DNA of 51,831 bases from Patescibacteria group bacterium (GTDB lineage Bacteria > Patescibacteriota > Minisyncoccia > Phycocordibacterales > 21-14-all-36-13): NCBI GenBank assembly GCA_018899555.1, contig JAHIHZ010000011.1, positions 1 to 51,831 on the forward strand, written 5' to 3'. The notes beneath the pieces are model-generated. The model did no database searches, was not told the origin of the DNA, and saw only the letters and a program-made list of their open reading frames with translations. The stretch's first letter is position 1. The number at the start of each line of letters is the position of its first letter. Below, piece by piece: positions 6,062 through 51,831 of the stretch. Position numbers and translations under genes: made by a program.

Positions 6062-6136
6062 TGGTGCGTGTGGATGGGATCGAACCATCGGCCTCCATTT
6101 TATCAGAATGGCGTTCTACCACTGAACTACACACGC
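6062..6136 (-). tRNA. tRNA-Ile (anticodon GAU), CCA encoded
   Basis: The reverse complement folds as a cloverleaf by hand: acceptor GCGTGTG/CACACGC, D arm GTTC/GAAC, anticodon arm CCATT-CTGATAA-AATGG, T arm GATGG-TTCGATC-CCATC, then ACCA. Confidence 0.95.
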
Positions 6137-6344
6137 AAAATAACAATAAAAATATATCAAAAAACTCGCTACAAGGCGAATTTTATAACAAATTATTATT
6201 TATTTAAAAACACAAAAACCACCATTGTGGCGGTTTTTAATTTTTTTGCAATTTGGAATTTGCAATTTGTGATTTGTGATTTGTGATTTGTGATTTGGAA
6301 TTTTCAAGTTTAAAAACTTTGTTTTTAAACTTGATATTACCCTC

Positions 6345-6362
6345 TCTTTTGTTTCGTTCAAC
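6345..6362 (-). promoter_or_regulatory. 3' half of 16S precursor processing stem (pairs with 10138-10155)
   Basis: TCTTTTGTTTCGTTCAAC at 6345-6362 is the exact reverse complement of 10138-10155. This gives an 18-bp helix bracketing the 16S gene, as in RNase III processing stems. Confidence 0.6.
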
Positions 6363-6625
6363 TGTCAGTTTCGCGCATCCGACAAAAAGCGAATGTATTT
6401 TTAAGATACAACATTATTATCTCTAACTCTGCTTTTAGCATAGTAGATCAACCTTTTCAATCTTGCTTCCTTGAGTGAAACAAGAAAATTTTAATTTAAA
6501 ATAATCCACGGCCACCTTCCGGTAGCCGTACCTTGTTACGACTTACTCCCTGTTACCGAATTTACCTTAGTTCGTCAAAGACGAGCTTCGGGTACCCCCG
6601 GCTCCCTTGAGTTGACGGGCGGTAT

Positions 6626-7583
6626 CGCATTACACAATGATTTCAATATATGTCAATAGTGTATGCACACCACTGGGCAAGCAGTTTTCCTGCACCCTAG
6701 CGGTTTCCATAGGTTTTCGCTTTTTTCCCTCTCTTCCTAATCTCATCACGAAGTCTAACAATTTTATTAAAACCCCTGTCTGTAAGATGTTCTTTTTTAG
6801 ACATCATTAAAACAATTTTTTTAAAAATTTTATAAACTTCCGCTTTTTTGGCTTGTAATGGATTTTTATCAAGAAAAGGGAAAAGTTTCGTTGTTAAATC
6901 TTTTAAATTATTTATCTTATATTTTGAATGAGGAAACCATCCATATCTATCATAAGACAGATCATAAATTCTTCCACACCCAATTGTTATAAGAATTCTC
7001 TCTAAAATTTTTTGATCATCGGCACGAAGTTCTATTTCAAATTCCGGTCGAATTTCAAATCTTCTTTTAAGAGTTTTATGTTTCCCTATGCTTATAGAAA
7101 AAGATCCCTCTCCGTCTATAAAACCAGAAACATAATTTGGATTTAATTTTTTCCTATGAATTTGTTCCTTCCCAATTGGTTTTTTTAACTTCTTGGTACT
7201 ATGAACTCTGCTGACTTCTTGCATAACATTTAAAAAAGATTGCTCTTTTATATACCTCGATGTTATCACACACCGAGGATTATGCAAGATCTCCTGTGGT
7301 AACTATATAGACCATTTGTTTTCATCTCGATATCACTACACGCAATATGTTTACTTTGACACAGTAGGCTTCTCCATATACTCGCAGGATGACCTACATA
7401 TTGCGCCACAGACTGATATTCAAGCTAAAAACTGCTAATTTCTCCCTTCACTGAATTTCCTCACGGAAAACAGCTGAGATTTCGCTTCAAAACACTGTGA
7501 CTTATTTTGGCCTGATTTCCAAAAACTTTTTTTAAAAAAGAAGTTGGGCACAGACTGGCTTATATAATCGCACAGCGACCCGA
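6626..7583 (-). mobile_element. 958-nt intron-like insertion in 16S between E. coli C1395 and A1396, carrying a LAGLIDADG gene; ribozyme class not assignable by eye
   Basis: Exon sequence GCCTTGTAC stops at 7584 and resumes as ATACCGCCCGTCAACTC at 6625. Joining the two restores the universal CCUUGUACA(C/U)ACCGCCCGUC. The insertion ends in G. The group I core motif seen in the other introns is absent. Confidence 0.7.
6697..7287 (-). CDS. LAGLIDADG homing endonuclease (single-motif type)
   Basis: Contains YVSGFIDGEGSFSISI. About 190 aa, located inside the rRNA insertion. Confidence 0.8.
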   Translation of the reverse strand: MHNPRCVITSRYIKEQSFLNVMQEVSRVHSTKKLKKPIGKEQIHRKKLNPNYVSGFIDGEGSFSISIGKHKTLKRRFEIRPEFEIELRADDQKILERILITIGCGRIYDLSYDRYGWFPHSKYKINNLKDLTTKLFPFLDKNPLQAKKAEVYKIFKKIVLMMSKKEHLTDRGFNKIVRLRDEIRKRGKKAKTYGNR

Positions 7584-7615
7584 GTACAAGGCTCGAGAAC
7601 GTATTCACCGCAGTA

Positions 7616-7651
<36 letters not shown>

Positions 7652-7804
7652 GGGTCGAGTTGCAGACCCCAATCCGAACTAGGACCGATTTTTAGGATTG
7701 GCTCAGGATTGCTCCGTCGCGACCTATTGTATCGGCCATTGTATTACGTGTGTAGCCCAGGGCATCAAAGGGACATGCTGACCTGGCGTCATCCTCTCCT
7801 TCCT

Positions 7805-7885
7805 CCCCTCCCTAAAAGAATTTTCAAACAAGAAGTTCGGCTTCTCAAGAGGAAGCCAAACTTCGAAAATTCACTTAGGGAGGGG
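7805..7885 (-). other. expanded 16S helix (about E. coli 1160-1175 region)
   Basis: CCCCTCCCTAAG ... CTTAGGGAGGGG encloses a second hairpin (GTTTGGCTTCCTCTTGAGAAGCCGAAC). E. coli has only about 15 nt at this position. Confidence 0.6.
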
Positions 7886-8235
7886 CAGTCTCGTCTGAAA
7901 TTTATAACAGACAACAAGGGTTGCGTTCGTTTCCCTACTTAAAGGAACAGCTCAAGCCACGAACTGACGACGGCCATGCATCACCTGCCTATCCGTTAAG
8001 ATTTTCTGTTTCTAGAAAAACATAAGATAGGTTTCAAGCCCTGGTGAGGTTCTTCGGTTAGTATCGAATTAAACCACATAATCCACCGCTTGTGCGAGCC
8101 CCCGTCTATTTCTTTGAGTTTTAACCTTGCGATCGTACTACCCAGGCGGTTCTCTTAATGCGTTAGCTTCGCCTCTCAGAGGGTCGATACTCCGAAAAGC
8201 TAGAGAACAACGTTTACGGCGTGGACTACAGGGGT

Positions 8236-8795
8236 CACTTTTGTTACGAAGTAACAAAAAAATTAAAAATGTAAAAATCAAAATGAAAAATTACAATTTA
8301 AAATTCAAAAGTTACCGGATACAACATTTCTGTGTATCTCTCTATGTCGCCATAGAGGTCGGACTATATCTTCACCCGGCACTTTCTGAAAGTGCTGGGG
8401 TTTGGCATGTAGTCTCTGAGGAGCCTTGCGTGCTATAAAATGCGGGCAACAGCACCTTTAACACACAAGTTTCCTGCTGATTGTCTGCATCGGTTTGAGA
8501 TTGTTACTATAATATATCAATAGTACTCGAACATTCGCAGAGTTTCCAGCATATAGCCAAATTACAATCTACTGTTGCCAGTAGAAGAGACACTGTTCGC
8601 ATTCTCTCACCTACTTGAGTGAGCATTTTCTTTTTTAAAACATATGCAGGAGATGAAATAAAAATCAAGGAGTCGCATAGGAAAATGAAACTGTTTGAGT
8701 CCTGCAAGGCAGGATGAGTTTTTCATTTTCCGTCATAAGACGATTATGATTTTTTTCATCGAAACATCGTTTTGAAAAAGAAGATGCGAACGTTT
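8236..8795 (-). mobile_element. group I intron in the 16S 790 loop (between U793 and A794), no ORF
   Basis: Splicing restores GGAUUAGAU|ACCCCUGUAGUCC. Core elements CCTCAGAGACTAC (P7 5' side) and GAAGATATAGTCCGAC (J8/7-P7', compare Tetrahymena AAGAUAUAGUCGGACC) are present at 8345-8425. The last intron nt is G and the last 5' exon nt is U. Confidence 0.8.
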
Positions 8796-9111
8796 ATCTA
8801 ATCCCTTTCGCTCCCCACGCTTTCGTGTTTCAGTGTCAGGAAATGTGCTAGTTTATTGCCTTCGCTTTTGGTGTTCCCCATAATATCAACGGATTTCACC
8901 CCTACACTATGAGTTCCATAAACCCCTCACACCCTCTAGTTGTACCGTTTCTTTTGCAGTTCTTCGGTTGAGCCGAATGTTTTAACAAAAGACTAATACA
9001 ACCACCTACACACCCTTTACGCCCAATGATTCCGGATAACGCTTGGGGCCTCTGTATTACCGCTCCTGCTGGCACAGAGTTAGGAGCCCCTTATTCATGA
9101 TCTGATGTCAA

Positions 9112-9230
9112 TCGCTCCGCGATTCCCACGCGGATAAACGCAGACAACAATGCGGATAGACGCGGATAAAAAATATCTGCGAAAATCTGCAAAAATATCT
9201 GCGAAAATCTGCGAAGAAATCGCAAAGCGA
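9112..9230 (-). repeat. V3-region expansion of 16S built from ATCTGCG/ATCCGCG-type repeats
   Basis: About 120 nt lie between ...GATTGAAGAAG and TTGACATCAGATCATG... The segment consists of tcgcagattttcgcagatatttttgcagattttcgcagat... and tatccgcgtctatccgc... Confidence 0.65.
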
Positions 9231-9466
9231 CTTCTTCAATCATAAAAGATCTTTACGTCCCTAAGGACTTCATCAATCACGCGATGTCGCTCCGTCAGGC
9301 TTTCGCCCATTGCGGAAGATTCTCGACTGCTGCCACCCGTAGGTGTATGGACCGTGTCGCAGTTCCACCGGTGGAGGTCAGGCTCTCACCTCTCCTAGAC
9401 GTCATAGCCTTGGTAAGCTTTTACCTTACCAACTAGCTGATATCCCGCAGGCCGATCCCAAAGCGC

Positions 9467-9518
9467 CCAGCACATATTTTGATTTTTGAACAATTTCAAA
9501 AATCAAAATATGTGCTGG
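9467..9518 (-). repeat. 52-nt near-perfect hairpin inside 16S V2
   Basis: CCAGCACATATTTTGATTTTTGAA-loop-TTCAAAAATCAAAATATGTGCTGG. Confidence 0.7.
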
Positions 9519-9532
9519 ACTTTACTCAACAC

Positions 9533-9825
9533 TTTTTTTATTTTACAAGAGATTCTTTAATTCGCTTTTTTATATATGTTCGAGCATTGCCATAATGTTT
9601 TAATCCTTTCTCCCGAGCTCTTGCATCTTCTTCGGATCTATATGATTCGCAATATACCAAAATCCACGGTATTCCAAATTTAGTTGATTGATTTATTCCA
9701 TCATTATGATGTTTAAGTCTCTCGGATAAATTTGTTGTAAATCCGAAATATAAATCTTTCGTTTTTTTGCTTTGAATCACATACACCGTATAAAGTTTCA
9801 TGAAGCTAATTATAAAATAAAAAAA
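9533..9825 (-). mobile_element. 293-nt insertion in a 16S V2 hairpin loop consisting almost only of a GIY-YIG ORF
   Basis: Bounded by an 8-bp inverted repeat, CTCAACAC (9525-9532) and GTGTTGAG (9826-9833). No group I core is visible. Confidence 0.65.
9538..9801 (-). CDS. GIY-YIG nuclease domain protein (87 aa)
   Basis: The N-terminus YTVYVIQSKKTKDLYFGFTTNLSERLKHHN is the GIY...YIG/R/E pattern of GIY-YIG domains. Confidence 0.8.
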   Translation of the reverse strand: MKLYTVYVIQSKKTKDLYFGFTTNLSERLKHHNDGINQSTKFGIPWILVYCESYRSEEDARAREKGLKHYGNARTYIKKRIKESLVK

Positions 9826-9925
9826 GTGTTGAGACTATCAGGTATTATCCCGCCTTTCGACGGATTATCCCTGACTTTGGGGGTCGTTCCTACGTGTTAC
9901 TACCTCGTTTGCCATGTTTTCTCGT

Positions 9926-10064
9926 CTACGGCGAGAACGCTGATGTTCGCAGATGGGGCTCGCTTGCGCTCGCCTTCGCAGATGTTCGCTGATATTTAAA
10001 AATTATATCTGCGTTAATCTGCGTTTTTTATCTGCGTTAATCTGCGGTCTTGTCGTAGACAAGA
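9926..10064 (-). repeat. 139-nt module expanding 16S helix 6 (V1); near-identical copy inside 23S (49169-49366)
   Basis: CTACGGCGAGAACGCTGATGTTCGCAGATGGGGCTCGCTTGCGCTCGCCTTCGCAGATGTTCGCTGATATTTAAAAATTATATCTGCGTTAATCTGCG... ...GGTCTTGTCGTAGACAAGA is shared with the 23S copy. Confidence 0.85.
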
Positions 10065-10137
10065 TACATTCGACTTGCATGCCTAATCCACATCGCCAGC
10101 GTTCATCCTGAGCTAGAATCAAACTCTAACTTAAAAA

Positions 10138-46209: not shown

Positions 46210-46293
46210 ACCCAGCTCACGTGACTTTTTAATTGGCGAACAGCCAAACCCTTGGGAGCTTCTACACCCCCAGGATAAGTCGAGCCGACATCG

Positions 46294-46644
46294 CAATATC
46301 ATTTTTCTCCTGTTACCAGGAGGATCGGACTATATCTTCTTCCTTCTACAACAATCAAATTGTAGTGAGGAGTTGGCGTATTAATATTTCGTTTGTGAAA
46401 TACTCTCTGCTTTCGCATCAGTCTCTACGGGGTCAATCCAGCACCTAATTTTTATTAATTAATTAATAAAAATTAGGTGCTGGACGACTTCCCACGGTAT
46501 TGTCCATAATAAAAATTATATCATGGAGTTCACCGTTATAAGCCAATATTTTAATCAAAACATATTCTCCTACAAATATGTTTTTTGATTCCAGGCTATA
46601 TGATTTCTCATATCGCACCCCGATTTAAATGTAAATTTACTTTA
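46294..46644 (-). mobile_element. group I intron at L2500, ORF-less (351 nt)
   Basis: Splicing restores GGCACCU|CGAUGUCGGCUC. P1 is GCACCU with GGGUGC. Core GAAGATATAGTCCGATCC and CCCCGTAGAGACTG at 46325-46430. Confidence 0.85.
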
Positions 46645-46687
46645 AGGTGCCGAACTCCGCCGTCGCTCTGAACGCTTAGGCGGAACC

Positions 46688-46720
<33 letters not shown>

Positions 46721-46884
46721 AATCTCCGGCCACATCTAATGTGTGCCGTCGGTTCACTATGTTCTGCTTTCGCATCTGCTTGACATGTCCGTCTTGCAGT
46801 TAAGCCAGCTTATGCCATTACACTATCGGCACGGTTTCCATTCGCGCCTAGCTGACCTTATAAACTCCTCCGTTACTTTTTAGG

Positions 46885-47289
46885 CATCATTGTTACCAAA
46901 TCGCAGATTCTCGCGGATTTTAAAACGCGGATTATGCAGATTGGGGCAAATATTTCTATGTGCCTCTCATTGTCGCCAATGAGATCGGACTATATCTTCT
47001 AAATCGTTTTTAAACAATTTAGTTCAGCGTGTAGTCTCTGGGGCTCTCTACTATTAGTAGATTGCCTGCTAGTTGTCCGCACCAAACAAATTTTTACTTT
47101 TTTTCAAGCAAGTATTGTTGGATACACCGGATTTTCTAGCATATAGCTGAATCCTATTTTATAAATTTTAATTAAATTTATAAAATACCCCCTCATTTAT
47201 TTATTTTGAAGTGGATTAAACTTCTGGAGGCGCCATAGTTTCAAGATACAGATTCTTACAGATTAAAATACTGATTTTCTGCACCCTGA
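46885..47289 (-). mobile_element. group I intron at about L2262 (just 3' of the P-loop), ORF-less
   Basis: Splicing restores GGGGCGCUAUCCU|CCUAAAAAGUAACGGAGGAG. Core at 46985-47045. The intron ends ...AAUGAUG. Confidence 0.75.
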
Positions 47290-47618
47290 AGGATAGCGCC
47301 CCACTAAAACTGTCCACCACGCAATGTCTCTCATCGTTTTTGCCGCTGAGGTTAGAATATACATCACAAAAGAATGGTATTTCACTGACGACTCCATCTG
47401 TTCCGAAAAACAAACTTCAAAGTCTCCCATCTATGCTACGCAGATGAAACATATATTCAATGCGAAGTTACAGTAAAGCTCCCGGGGTCTTTTCGTCCCG
47501 TTGCAGGTAACCGGCATCTTCACCGGTACTGTATTTTCACCGAGCTGTTCCCCGAGACAGTCCCCCAGTCGTTACGCCATTCGTGCACGTGTGAACTTAC
47601 CACACAAGGAATTACGCT

Positions 47619-48082
47619 CAACTTTGTTACTTTGTAAGAAACGCAACTTATGTTAATTACACATATTCGCGCAAATACAAGGTAAGAACATTTCTGTCTC
47701 ACTCTTTGTGTCGCCACAAAGTTCGGACTATATTTTCTAAATTATTTTTGTGTTTAATTTAGTTTGACTTTTAGTCTCTGAGGATGTTGCGAACTTTTTT
47801 TCTTTTAAAAAGTTCTCAACTTTCCTGCTGATTTTCCGCATCACCTTAAAGATTATTACTGTTTAAAAAAATTAAACGAGTACTCAAGGATACATTGCGG
47901 GTTTCCCAGCATATGGTCAAAATTTAAAGACATTTCACTTAATGTGAAATAGGCAACAACCTTTTTATTACCAAATTATTTATAATCGTCCCAGTCCTTC
48001 TACACTAGAAGTTAGAAACCAGAAACTAGAAAAATAAATTTTCCAGAAATCCAGCGTCTTAGTAATCAGCCTCCAGTGCAAA
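47619..48082 (-). mobile_element. group I intron at L1931, ORF-less
   Basis: Splicing restores CCUAAGGU|AGCGUAAUUCC. Core at 47720-47785. The intron ends ...AAAGUUG. Confidence 0.8.
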
Positions 48083-48096
48083 ACCTTAGGACGATT

Positions 48097-48844
48097 CATA
48101 AACGTTATCACTGCTCTCAAGCAGCTCCTCATGGTCGCCCATGAGATCGGACTATCTCTTCCAAATCCGATTTCTCGGATTAGGTCTAGCGTATAGTCTC
48201 TGAGGATTTTCTGATAAAGAGTTTCTATAATCTTCTATATTATATTTTCTCTTTCTTCCTCTCCCTTCATTCAATTTTTCTCTTAATTTTACTATTTTAG
48301 ACATCCCTTCGTTGTTTAAATGTTCTTTTTTATAAACTATTTCTGTAATTTGTGAAAAAATTGAGAAATTTTTTTTTTACTTGAAGAAAGAAAAGAATAT
48401 TTTTTGAAGAAAGGTATTATCCTCTCTTGAATTGCGTTTGGGTTTGAAATTACATAGTACCAAACTCCATCTTTTCGTTCTTGCAATCTGCCACATTTTA
48501 AATATTGTTTCATTAAAGCAAGAATCGTTTTGTCGCGTTGAGCGACATTTAAAGTCAACACTATTTGCCAACCGAGAGAATGATCTTCGCGTTTTCTTAA
48601 AGAAACATTGAAGCTTCCCTCTCCGTCAACAAACCCTGAAATATAGTTTCCTATATTTTGGGGTATTAATTTAAGCCACGAATAATCTTTATTCATAAGT
48701 TTTATTCGTTACTTTGTCAGAATCTTTCCTGCGGATTGTCTGCACCGTTGCATTGTTACTATCCTTTCGACAAGAATGAGTAGCAAACGGATACACCAGA
48801 GTTTCCCGCATATAGCTAGATTTTTTAACTACAATCGTCACCTT
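48097..48844 (-). mobile_element. group I intron at L1917 (inside helix 69 loop) with disrupted LAGLIDADG gene
   Basis: P1 is AACUAU (exon) with GUAGUU (intron). Splicing restores GGCGAUAACUAU|AAUCGUCC, a helix 69 of the same length as in E. coli with compensatory stem changes. Core at 48145-48215. Confidence 0.85.
48152..48696 (-). pseudogene. LAGLIDADG homing endonuclease gene interrupted by a frameshift in an A10 run
   Basis: The 119-aa ORF (48337-48696) contains YISGFVDGEGSFNV. After the T10 run at 48369-48378 the homologous C-terminus (..KKEHLNNEGMSKIVKLREKLNEGRGRKRKY..) continues in another frame. Compare the 16S enzyme ..KKEHLTDRGFNKIVRLRDEIRKRGKK... Confidence 0.7.
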
Positions 48845-48889
48845 ATAGTTATCGCCGACATTCACCAGGGCTTACACAATCCAGCCATT

Positions 48890-49040
48890 TGCATCACGCT
48901 ATGCGCGATGCTCAAAATTAAATATAAAATATCAAAGATAAAAAATATTGAAGTCAAAATTTTCTTTGAAAATTTTGACACCTAAATTTTACATTTTGAT
49001 TTTTGAATTTTGAATTTCATCACACGCAGTGTGATGCAAA
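48890..49040 (-). other. 23S domain IV helix expansion (three-way junction with AT-rich arm)
   Basis: TCATTTGCATCAC...GTGATGCAAATGG encloses two GC hairpins and an AT-rich module. E. coli has a short hairpin at this position. Confidence 0.6.
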
Positions 49041-49168
49041 TGACCCCCCGTGTTTAACCTTCTGGCATTGGTCAGGCGTCACCCCCTATACATCCTCTTA
49101 CGAGTTCGCAGGGAGCTGTGTTTTTGGTAAACAGTCGCCAGGGGTACTTTCGCTGCGTCCTTTCTCGC

Positions 49169-49366
49169 CTACGGCGAGAACGCTGATGTTCGCAGATGGG
49201 GCTCGCTTGCGCTCGCCTTCGCAAATGTTCGCTGATATTTAAAAATTATATCTGCGTTAATCTGCGTTTTTATCTGCGTTAACCCTGTTAAATAATTTTG
49301 CCTTCGGCAAAATTCCTGCAAGGCAGGATTTAACGGGGTGAATCTGCGGTCTTGTCGTAGACAAGA
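49169..49366 (-). repeat. copy of the 16S helix-6 module inside 23S, with a nested 58-nt ACCCTGTTAAAT-type module
   Basis: Collinear with 9926-10064 except for 1 substitution, 1 T indel and the nested insert at 49282-49339. Confidence 0.85.
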
Positions 49367-49924
49367 AGGGAAAGCCTTATTCCAAAGTTACGGCTGCTTT
49401 TTTGCCGAGTTCCTTGGGGAACACTCACTCATTCGCCTTAGTCTTCTCGACCTGATCACCTGTGTCGGTTTGCGGTACGGTTTTCATTTATTTAATCTTA
49501 GAGGTTTTTCTTGGAAGCTTGCTTTATTTGATTCCCTTTGGCGAACCTCCGGTTCTCCACTTCGCTTGAAATTAACATTAAAGTTAGGTGCCCGGATTTG
49601 CCTAAACACCTTTCTCACGAAGCAGACGCAAATCCAATAATGCGCCAAATATACTAAACTTCGTCACCCCATCGAAATAAATGAAAGTCACGGAATATTA
49701 ACCGTGTGTCCATCGGCTTCGACTTTCGTCATAACCTTAGGACCGACTAACCCTTGGATGATTCTCATTGCCAAGGAAACCTTGATCTTTCGGCGTCCCA
49801 CCTTTTTAGTGGGATTGTGGTTACTCGTGCCAACATTATCTCTTCCGTACGCTCCACCATGGGTCACCCCTTTGGCTTCACAGCAGAACGGAATGCTCTC
49901 CTACCGCTCATGCTACGCACGAGC

Positions 49925-50030
49925 AAGTCGAAAGTAAAAAGTCAAAAGTTGAAAGCAAGAACAAAAAGATGAACATAGCTTTTGACTTTATAGACTTTAT
50001 AGACTTTTAACTCGCTTGTGCGAAGCACAA
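49925..50030 (-). other. expansion at 23S helix 45 (classical IVS site)
   Basis: About 100 nt of AT-rich sequence plus the CTTGTGCGAAGCACAAG hairpin lie between ACCGAAACTGAGGG and GGTAGGAGAGCATTCC. Confidence 0.6.
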
Positions 50031-50181
50031 GCCCTCAGTTTCGGTACTACACTTAGCCCCGATTATTTATGGCGCAAAATCTCTTAACGAGTGAGCTGTT
50101 ACGCTTTCTTTAAAGGATGGCTGCTTCTAAGCCAACCTCCTCGCTGTCGGAGAAATTCCACCTCCTTATTAGCACTTAGTG

Positions 50182-50236
50182 TCTCCGATTTCCTTTAGGA
50201 AATCGAGAGTCCGCGATTCTGTAAACAGAATCGGGA
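50182..50236 (-). other. two-hairpin insertion in 23S domain II
   Basis: CGATTTCCTTTAGGAAATCG and CGATTCTGTAAACAGAATCG interrupt ...AAGGTCCCTAAATTTTC / CACTAAGTGC... Confidence 0.55.
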
Positions 50237-50321
50237 AAATTTAGGGACCTTAACTTGAGATCTGGGCTGTTTCCCTTTTGACCGACGGAGCTTAGCCCCC
50301 GTAGTCTGACTGTTTAGAATT

Positions 50322-50458
50322 CTCTCGCCTCCGGCGAGAACGCTGATGTTCGCAGATTTACCCTGTTAAATTCTGTGAAGCAGAAAATTTGCTTTAGCAA
50401 ATTTATTTAACAGGGTGAATCCGCATTTTTATAATCCGCGATCTTGTCGGAGACAAGA
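50322..50458 (-). repeat. third, partial copy of the CGGCGAGAACGCTGATGTTCGCAGAT module inside 23S
   Basis: CTCTCGCCTCCGGCGAGAACGCTGATGTTCGCAGAT, then an ACCCTGTTAAAT...TTTAACAGGGT module, then GAATCCGC...TCTTGTCGGAGACAAGA. Confidence 0.75.
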
Positions 50459-50780
50459 CGTTCTGGTATTCGGAGTTTGATTGGTCTAGTGAGATTGCTC
50501 CCTATCCAGACCATCCAGTGCTCTACCCCCAGAAGGTAATCTAAACGCTAGCCCTAAAGCTATTTCGGAGAGAACCAGCTATTACCAGGTTCGATTAGCT
50601 TTTCACTCCTACCCACAACTCATCCGATGGTTTTGCACGGCCAACCGGTTCGGGCCTCCCTCTATCTTTCGACAGAGTTCACCCTGGTCATAGGTAGCTC
50701 ACCTGGCTTCGGGTCTTACATATACTACACCTGCAATAAAGCAGAACGCGCTTTTGACACTCGGTTTCCCTTAGACTCCA

Positions 50781-50855
50781 CCCAGCCGTAGTTTTCGAAA
50801 ACTTATGAGGTAGTAATAAAAACAAATCAAAACTACTTCAAAAACTACGGCTGGG
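50781..50855 (-). other. expansion at 23S helix 25 (classical IVS site)
   Basis: CCCAGCCGTAGTTTT...AAAACTACGGCTGGG is a long hairpin in the position of helix 25. Confidence 0.6.
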
Positions 50856-50911
50856 CTTAGTCAAGCAATATATATAAACTCGTTGGCTCATTCTTCAATA
50901 GGCACACCGTC

Positions 50912-51171
50912 GCCGTTGCATCTCGCTAGGCAATATGCAACGGAAAATCACAAACCACAAGCACCAAAACACAAATTTATCCCGCCTGCCTGCAGTAGGC
51001 AGGTAGCTTCACGAAGTGAATGGTATGGGACAAAACATAATTACCAAAATTCAAAAATCAAAACTCAAAACTTTTTTATTTGAAATTTGGAAATTAGAAT
51101 TTAGAATTTATTTGTAATTTGGGATTTGTTTATTGGAATTTCCGTGCATCTCACACAGTGAGATGCAACGG
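50912..51171 (-). repeat. 260-nt composite expansion in 23S domain I/II (AC-rich arm, GC module, GU-rich arm)
   Basis: Contains AATCACAAACCACAAGCACCAAAACACAAA, the TTATCCCGCCTGCCTGCAGTAGGCAGG...GGTATGGGACAAA module (also intergenic at 32520-32577), and TTTGTAATTTGGGATTTGTTTATTGG. Confidence 0.75.
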
Positions 51172-51222
51172 CTCCGATTCCTTGTAGACATATGGTTTCA
51201 GGTCTATTTCACTCCCCTCTCC

Positions 51223-51265
<43 letters not shown>

Positions 51266-51506
51266 ATCTCTAAGAGTATTTAGCCTTACCAGTTAGTTCT
51301 GGCAGATTCTCTCAAGCCATTCGTGTCTTGAGATACTCAGGAACATCAACAAAGAAGTATATGAAATTTCGTTTAAGGGGCTATCACTCTCTAGGGCCAA
51401 GCTTTCCAGCTTGTTCAACTATTTCACATATTTATAACTTCTCTTGCATAAATGCAACATTAATGTCCTACAACACCAGCCATACCTCACTAAGTTCGGT
51501 CTGTCT

Positions 51507-51668
51507 GGAAATCACAAATCACAAGCACCAAAACACAAACAAAACACAATTACCAAAATTCAAAAACCAAAACCTTTTTGTTTGAGATTTGAAAATTAGA
51601 ATTTAGAATTTATTTGTAATTTGGAATTTGTTTATTGGAATTTCCGTGCTGAACACAGTGAGGCACGG
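51507..51668 (-). repeat. 160-nt long imperfect hairpin expansion in 23S domain I, paralogous to 50912-51171
   Basis: An AAATCACAAATCACAAGCACCAAAACACAAAC... arm faces a ...TTTGTAATTTGGAATTTGTTTATTGGAATTT arm. It closes with CCGTGCTGAACACAGTGAGGCACGG. Confidence 0.75.
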
Positions 51669-51831
51669 CCGGTTTGGGCTTCTCCCGTTTCGCTCGCCGC
51701 TACTAAGGGAATCGCGAGCTTTGCTTTTTGCCCGCTGTAAAGAAAAGACAATATTTATTTCTTTATTTCTAAAGAAAAAATAATATTAATTCCTTTACCT
51801 ATTGCCTGTTCGCTTTTTAAAAATAAAAAGC

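Follow-up and report, generated by a model that had tools for sequence, protein, structure and literature searches.

The 16S rRNA gene in the 51,831-nt stretch of DNA analyzed here (referred to as a whole as the window) is split in its decoding-centre strand by a 958-nt insert that we identify, with a probability of about 0.9, as a compact group II intron of class C (IIC)-like type whose domain IV holds a single-motif LAGLIDADG endonuclease instead of a reverse transcriptase (RT). Judging from its sequence, this intron is most likely spliced out of the pre-16S rRNA and spread by endonuclease-driven homing. Elements of this kind have already been catalogued and published as insertions at site 16IS9 of the 16S rRNA genes of CPR bacteria; the intron in the window thus represents one more case of a pairing of group II ribozyme and LAGLIDADG protein that is rare in general and common in CPR 16S rRNA genes.

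The interrupted gene is found on the minus strand of the window (roughly 10134-6500). In 11 intron-less relatives from the same order, the corresponding sequence is unbroken (CCUUGUACUC-ACCGCCCGUC) and reads GUACUC|ACCGCC across the insertion point; the intron-less site of a relative is CCTTGTACTCACCGCCCGTCA. No other register fits this contiguous alignment, and the insert therefore comprises window positions 6624-7581. Its junctions are ...GUACUC | GGGUCGCUGUGCG ... AAUGCGAU | ACCGCCCGUC (in a longer view, ...GUACUC | GGGUCGCUGUGCGAUU ... GUGUAAUGCGAU | ACCGCCCGUC), and the last base of the intron is a U, not a G. When numbered according to Table S4 of Liu et al. (2026; PMC13190283), in which GUACA|C corresponds to 1396, the insertion point falls between 16S positions 1397 and 1398. 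A preliminary description of this region, made from the sequence alone, had rightly recognized an insertion of about 958 nt in the decoding-centre strand and a 5' exon ending in C, both of which are supported by the alignment with the intron-less relatives. The junctions it gave (GUAC|...G|AUACC, with bounds at 6626-7583) were displaced by 2 nt because the canonical GUACAC had been assumed where the order possesses GUACUC. The bounds of the intron and its flanking exon elements are:

6624..7581, minus strand: the whole group II intron, 958 nt, delimited by the contiguous alignment of the intron-less relatives
7582..7587, minus strand: IBS1, the last six nt of the 5' exon (GUACUC, 16S 1392-1397), from the intron-less relatives and the complementarity to EBS1
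6614..6623, minus strand: start of the 3' exon, ACCGCCCGUC, 16S position 1398 onward, from the intron-less relatives

The host assembly (625 kb in 33 contigs, 95% complete) contains this 16S copy only, and the insert must therefore come out if a working ribosome is to be made. The 16S exons flanking it are intact. With respect to the surroundings of the intron, we observed that the 23S and 16S rRNA genes (window regions 46211-51831 and 6062-10134) are located on the same strand about 36 kb apart, and that the latter is followed by tRNA-Ile only. The 16S 3' end after helix 45 (window 6495-6520, minus strand) reads GGAUUAUUUUAAAUU and is devoid of a CCUCC anti-Shine-Dalgarno sequence. Elsewhere within the 16S rRNA gene, a near-perfect hairpin of about 80 nt (window 7803-7888, minus strand), which appears as an insertion of 71 nt when set against the Rfam SSU model, attracts spurious matches to microRNA precursors.

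Searches with Rfam covariance models connect the insert to group II introns. With a score of 54.9 bits (gathering score 35), model RF01998 (group-II-D1D4-1) matches the minus strand at positions 7165-7254, while neither the group I model RF00028 nor RF00029, the Rfam model for domains V and VI, matched the insert region even at E<=10. The silence of RF00029 is presumably caused by the extra bulged A and the pentaloop present in domain V of this intron. For comparative purposes, we assembled homologous introns from two genomes of the same order, from 21 named CPR genomes that were found via the endonuclease, and from metagenomes (66 complete copies), which resulted in a comparison set of 89 homologous introns, 75 of them distinct. 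All 89 are inserted at exactly GUACUC|ACCGCC, with ACUGCC in a few copies. The named genomes among their sources are those of Nomura-, Kaiser-, Vogel-, Yanofsky- and Moraniibacteria and of Paceibacterota; these names, together with the size of the host assembly, mark the host of the window intron as a member of the CPR (Patescibacteria). Of 20 homologous loci, 17 were matched above threshold by RF01998 and one by RF02001 (group II D1-D4-3); among 150 genomes sampled evenly across the phylum, RF01998 found a match in six (4%). A full-length comparison of the window intron with that of genome G023 gives 72% identity. As a canonical comparator we used L127, an RT-encoding intron from the Anoxybacillus amylolyticus plasmid NZ_CP015439.1 (RF02001, 143 bits; RF01998, 79 bits); a search for such a comparator in E. 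coli genomes yielded no match. The elements of the intron are as follows:

7576..7581, minus strand: 5'-terminal motif GGGUCG, replacing GUGYG; it adjoins the 5' side of helix I(i) and aligns with GUGCG of L127
7294..7575, minus strand: domain I, with helices I(i) (7571-7575/7294-7298), I(ii) (7558-7568/7302-7312), Ia, Ib, Ic and Id, from covariation
7378..7383, minus strand: EBS1, GAGUAU, in the loop of the Id3 hairpin (7373-7389); 6 bp with GUACUC, one of them G.U
7213..7293, minus strand: domain II, with basal stem UCUUGCAUA/UAUGCAAGA and two inner hairpins, from covariation; RF01998 aligns an inner hairpin
7164..7212, minus strand: J2/3 (AGCAGA) and domain III (GUUCAUAGUACC...GGGAAGGAAC), from RF01998 and near-identity to L127
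6697..7224, minus strand: LAGLIDADG homing-endonuclease ORF, 175 aa plus stop (Pfam PF00961, E 1.3e-20)
6669..6704, minus strand: domain V, ACCGCU-A-GGGU GCAG GAAAA CUGC UU GCCC AGUGGU, from covariation, with which the single-sequence MFE fold agrees
6627..6666, minus strand: domain VI with a bulged A at 6631, predicted from the MFE fold of the window copy; layout as in L127

Folding of the 5' part by RNAalifold on 22 sequences yielded domains I-III with 94 pairs in 14 helices, and compensatory changes occur in 71 of these 94 pairs. Paired cells amounted to 96.2% in domains I-III, compared to 71.7% in column shuffles, none of which (0 of 500) reached the observed value; when the partners were slid against each other by 1-3 columns, this figure fell to 37-46%. 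The covariation score for the same domains was 0.71, as opposed to 0.22 in the shuffles. Domain I possesses one Ic arm that is capped by a GUGA tetraloop, and Id ends in a terminal hairpin; in domain II, compensatory changes are found in 6 of the 12 pairs of helix 12. Domains I-III together measure 418 nt, and domains V and VI about 80 nt. One homologous intron (L007:1173-2460 in genome G006) is 1288 nt long and has about 290 extra nt in the helix Ia loop of domain I, a segment that may be a nested element.

The loop of the Id3 hairpin provides the contact to the 5' exon. Its 6-bp pairing with IBS1 is kept in all 53 homologues whose exon is known, of which 39 carry GAGUAC, 10 GAGUAU, and 4 other variants that retain the pairing. 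Complementarity to the exon further upstream did not exceed that in shuffled controls, and we therefore assign no EBS2 to this intron. At the 5' end of the intron, GUGCG of L127 aligns to GGGUCG, and the latter is therefore a variant that occupies the position of GUGYG and departs from this consensus; GGGUG, GUGACG and GUGUCG are found as variants among the homologues. We also considered an internal GUGCG, located 8 nt into the intron, as a displaced GUGYG motif behind an 8-nt 5' linker, and rejected this arrangement because the bases in question form helix I(i), in which CUGUG pairs with CACAG just before domain II and two of the five pairs covary. The base that would be 'G1' of the internal GUGCG itself covaries (AU 13, GC 5, UA 4), and the exact motif is present in a minority of the homologues only. 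A 5' hairpin (nt 1-7 with nt 11-17) was likewise set aside; it is weakly supported and conflicts with better-supported helices. The loose GGTCTATATAGTTACC of the preliminary description is not a degenerate group I core but the 3' strand of helix I(ii) together with the conserved UUAC that precedes I(i).

For the 3' part of the intron, RNAalifold was run on the last 85 nt, with 23 sequences for domain V. This domain is a 36-nt hairpin of 14 pairs, six of which show compensatory changes and none of which is broken in any of the 23 sequences. The CGC triad, whose G is engaged in a G.U wobble, is followed by 5 bp and then by a 2-nt UU bulge on the 3' strand. Domain V deviates from the canonical form in two respects: an extra bulged A on its 5' strand (window 6698), which none of the 75 distinct introns lacks, and a loop that is a GAAAN pentaloop. 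The canonical 34-nt register was tried for this domain and gave no pairing, whereas the register with the bulged A pairs with covariation. Domain VI starts two nt downstream of domain V. Its bulged A is located 8 nt from the 3' splice site, and four more pairs and then GAU (6624-6626) complete the intron; we regard this nucleotide as the putative branch-site A, which the window copy thus appears to have retained. A bulged A is present at -7 to -10 in 37 of 71 homologues, and domain VI looks degenerate in one clade (L007, L025, L027 and relatives).

The LAGLIDADG ORF noticed in the preliminary description is confirmed by its match to Pfam PF00961 (74.6 bits). Its product carries a single LAGLIDADG motif (GFIDGEG) and is expected to act as a homodimer. 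Among solved structures, the closest are the fungal mitochondrial enzymes I-SmaMI, I-OnuI and I-LtrI (E about 1e-36), a likeness that agrees with the LHE2 clade of Liu et al. (2026; PMC13190283). The database contains 584 homologues of the endonuclease; the best 120 of these 584 cover 93-100% of the query, and one homologue has been annotated as a 'putative maturase' by its source. The ATG (window 7224) lies within the 3' strand of domain II, from where the reading frame crosses J2/3 and domain III (MQEVSRVHSTKK...) and then domain IV, and it terminates inside domain V at a UAG codon (6699-6697) that is formed partly by the extra bulged A. Consequently, the sequence of catalytic RNA elements also specifies the first ~22 residues of the protein and its final four (YGNR). 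No start codon upstream of the LAGLIDADG helix is positioned beyond intron nt 358. In 72 of the 75 distinct introns, J2/3 is preceded by an ATG from which the frame stays open despite the variable length of the domain III loop, and RNA and protein constraints therefore overlap in these elements.

The CPR introns at GUACUC|ACCGCC might be viewed as a structurally distinct, undescribed IIC-like sub-lineage, a proposal that we make tentatively and consider rather doubtful. Its features would be a GGGU(C)G 5' end, an invariant bulged A between the triad and the 2-nt bulge of domain V, a GAAAN pentaloop, and dual coding, with the endonuclease ORF occupying the same sequence as J2/3, domain III and the domain V 5' strand. 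If this proposal were true, the sequences of the catalytic RNA and of the protein would constrain each other.

Our analysis directly establishes how the RNA is built and that its pairs covary, that the ORF is intact, and where exactly the intron is inserted. We infer that the insert is removed, because it splits the universally conserved 1392-1400 strand of the only 16S rRNA gene; splicing, the chemistry of its first step, and the activity of the endonuclease are predictions. According to the mechanism that we propose, the intron would be transcribed within the pre-16S rRNA, and its ribozyme would fold such that the EBS1 loop GAGUAU pairs with the exon sequence GUACUC, thereby fixing the 5' splice site. 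A core composed of domain V and J2/3 would then catalyze two transesterifications, the first of them involving either the bulged A of domain VI (yielding a lariat) or water (yielding a linear intron), and the joining of the exons would restore GUACUC-ACCGCCCGUC in the decoding centre. The endonuclease would be translated from the intron RNA and, probably as a homodimer, would cut intron-less 16S rDNA at the insertion site, whereupon repair would copy the intron into the cut site (homing). In vitro, self-splicing of IIC introns is often inefficient and proceeds by hydrolysis, and help by a protein may be needed.

How far the ribozyme can act by itself is at the heart of an alternative that we consider unlikely: the insert could descend from a group II intron but have lost the ability to self-splice, so that its excision would depend entirely on a cofactor, be it the LAGLIDADG protein in the role of a maturase or a factor of the host, or the 16S copy that carries it could be non-functional. 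Its non-canonical domain V (extra bulged A, GAAAN pentaloop, no match to RF00029), the 5' motif GGGUCG, the degenerate domain VI of some clades, and the maturase annotation of one homologue speak in favour of this alternative. However, these odd features are either invariant or covarying across 75 distinct introns, which points to purifying selection on the function of the RNA and hence argues for a functional element. A non-functional copy is difficult to reconcile with the fact that this is the sole 16S rRNA gene of a 95%-complete genome and has intact exons, and a need for a cofactor would fit the group II intron that we propose without introducing a separate mechanism.

The preliminary description had found no recognizable group I core, had considered a divergent group I subclass, a different excision mechanism, or an insertion that is retained or processed by RNases, and had suggested scans with group I and group II covariance models, with a good group I fit as the outcome that would overturn it. 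We regard it as very improbable that RNase III or another RNase of the host cuts out the insert and the exons stay unjoined, which would leave a fragmented 16S rRNA. Fragmenting intervening sequences are known from bacterial rRNA genes, as cited in PMC11270868, and other inserts in the same 16S rRNA gene resemble helix-loop expansions; the ends of the intron, however, are no more complementary to each other than shuffled sequences (-21.7 versus -22.5 +/- 3.8 kcal/mol) and form no terminal stem, and the element is located in the single-stranded, universally conserved 1392-1400 strand of the decoding centre, not at the tip of a helix. Processing or retention of this type would also leave the conserved ribozyme architecture unexplained. 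That the insert is a highly divergent group I intron is an idea to which we attach next to no probability, even though group I introns are the usual carriers of LAGLIDADG genes and are present elsewhere in the window. With regard to these introns, matches above the threshold of the Rfam group I model are confined to three places (8340-8618, 46966-47196 and 47704-47976; 55-83 bits), in contrast to the eight clear group I introns that had been counted before. The scan at E<=10 gave no group I fit in the region of the insert; moreover, the 5' exon does not end in U but in C, the intron ends in U and consequently has no omega-G, and the fold supported by covariation is that of a group II intron. 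A group I core was rightly reported as lacking, and it is absent because the insert is a group II intron; the suggestion of a different excision mechanism has thus proved apt, given a group II match above the curated cut-off (54.9 versus 35 bits) and the group II architecture recovered by comparison.

The class C-like character of the group II intron rests on its CGC triad, the lack of Ic2 and EBS2, its small size, and its match to L127, and we make this assignment, with corresponding reserve, from one comparator and published descriptions; the latter list a CGC triad, a compact domain I without Ic2, the absence of EBS2, and a ribozyme of about 400-450 nt as features of class C (PMC13190283). 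In a block alignment, L127 reads GUGCG-UCCGG(I(i))-CA ... UUAC-CCGGG-GAGGUCUG ... CAGAAGUCAGCAGAGGUCAUAGUACC ... GGGAAGGAC, and the window intron GGGUCG-CUGUG-CG ... UUAC-CACAG-GAGAUCUU ... AAGAAGUCAGCAGAGUUCAUAGUACC ... GGGAAGGAAC. Identical stretches comprise UUAC + I(i) + GAGRUCU and AGAAGUCAGCAGAG.UCAUAGUACC...GGGAAGGA, and the 3' parts have in common the base of domain V (AACCGC...GUGGUGU), the CGC triad, J5/6, the bulged A, and the 3' GAU. The two introns differ in that the one studied here has a 175-aa LAGLIDADG ORF where L127 and class C encode an RT of about 420 aa, starts with GGGUCG and not with GUGCG, and carries the extra bulged A and the pentaloop in domain V. Typical class C introns encode an En-less RT, insert after terminator or attC hairpins, and recognize a short IBS1, none of which applies to the window intron with its 6-bp IBS1 and its target in the 16S decoding-centre strand, where there is no terminator hairpin. 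In view of its LAGLIDADG ORF, its 6-bp IBS1 and its 16S target, we therefore regard it as a IIC-like ribozyme but not as a typical class C retroelement, and its mobility is presumably DNA-based.

Group II introns that carry LAGLIDADG genes are also known from fungi, where they were reportedly studied by Toor and Zimmerly in 2002, Mullineux et al. in 2010, and Li et al. in 2011. Those residing in fungal mitochondrial rRNA genes possess a IIB1 backbone and mostly encode double-motif, monomeric enzymes; many of them have 1-33 extra nt at their 5' end and have lost the branch A, and 5' terminal linkers have been described both for fungal rRNA introns and for C.te.I1 (PMC4424553). The window intron shares with them the combination of a group II ribozyme and a LAGLIDADG ORF in an rRNA gene, and the endonucleases are related. 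It differs from them by its single-motif enzyme, its IIC-like backbone, and a branch A that appears to be retained.

Closer to the window intron is the rns-1396 intron family of Thiomargarita and other Thiotrichaceae, which reportedly goes back to work by Salman et al. in 2012. The members of this family in Thiomargarita and the Thiotrichaceae have been classed as IIC-LHE (Liu et al., 2026; PMC13190283), and a comparison based on the descriptions and Table S4 of that study shows that they are a sister family or close analogue of the window intron. Both are located in the 16S decoding centre and combine a IIC-type backbone without EBS2 and Ic2 with a single-motif LAGLIDADG gene in domain IV, and both endonucleases are related to fungal mitochondrial ones. 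The rns-1396 introns, however, are inserted at A1396/C1397 (GUACA|CACCGC), whereas the GUACUC|ACCGCC site of the window intron is one nt downstream; EBS1 differs as well, and a 5' terminal linker precedes the GUGYG-like motif in the rns-1396 introns (PMC13190283), while GGGUCG adjoins helix I(i) directly in the window family. Because of the shifted site, the different EBS1 and the reported linker, we do not file the window intron under rns-1396.

A second family of insertions, 461-903 nt in length (L004 in G003, L006 in G001, L008 in G020 and L014 in G034), uses the sites GUACUCA|CCGCC or GUACUCAC|CGCC, which are 1-2 nt downstream of that of the window intron, and includes two genomes of the window's genus. 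No Rfam family matched these insertions above threshold, and two of the copies are ORF-less. Inspection by eye of a J2/3-domain III motif (AGAAGUCAGC..GUAGUAC..GGAAGGAC) and of a domain V that lacks the extra bulged A suggests that they may be group II introns as well. In this second family, AUGCG directly precedes I(i) and 6-7 extra nt are found upstream of it; these represent a true 5' terminal linker, unlike the situation in the window family.

Insertions in CPR 16S rRNA genes of the type to which the window intron belongs are said to have been first seen by Brown et al. in 2015. The survey by Tsurumaki et al. (2024; PMC11270868) lists 53 group II-like insertions in CPR 16S rRNA genes, all at site 16IS9 (~1400), of which 39 encode LAGLIDADG_1 and none an RT, and reports that transcripts lack the insertions of CPR rRNA genes. 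The window intron has every feature of this class and no essential difference from it: a CPR host (with a genome of 0.6 Mb), the same region of the 16S rRNA gene, a match to a group II model, a single-domain LAGLIDADG_1 ORF, and no RT. It splits the 1392 universal primer site, and organisms with such introns can therefore escape amplicon surveys. In the text of the 2024 survey consulted here (PMC11270868), insertions are classed by their Rfam match, without domain-level structure. The GGGUCG 5' end, read as a 5' motif and not as an 8-nt linker, the bulged A of domain V, and the overlap of the ORF with the catalytic core (J2/3, domain III and domain V) may add to the description of 16IS9, and together with the exact bounds of the intron they are what the window copy contributes for specialists in group II intron structure.
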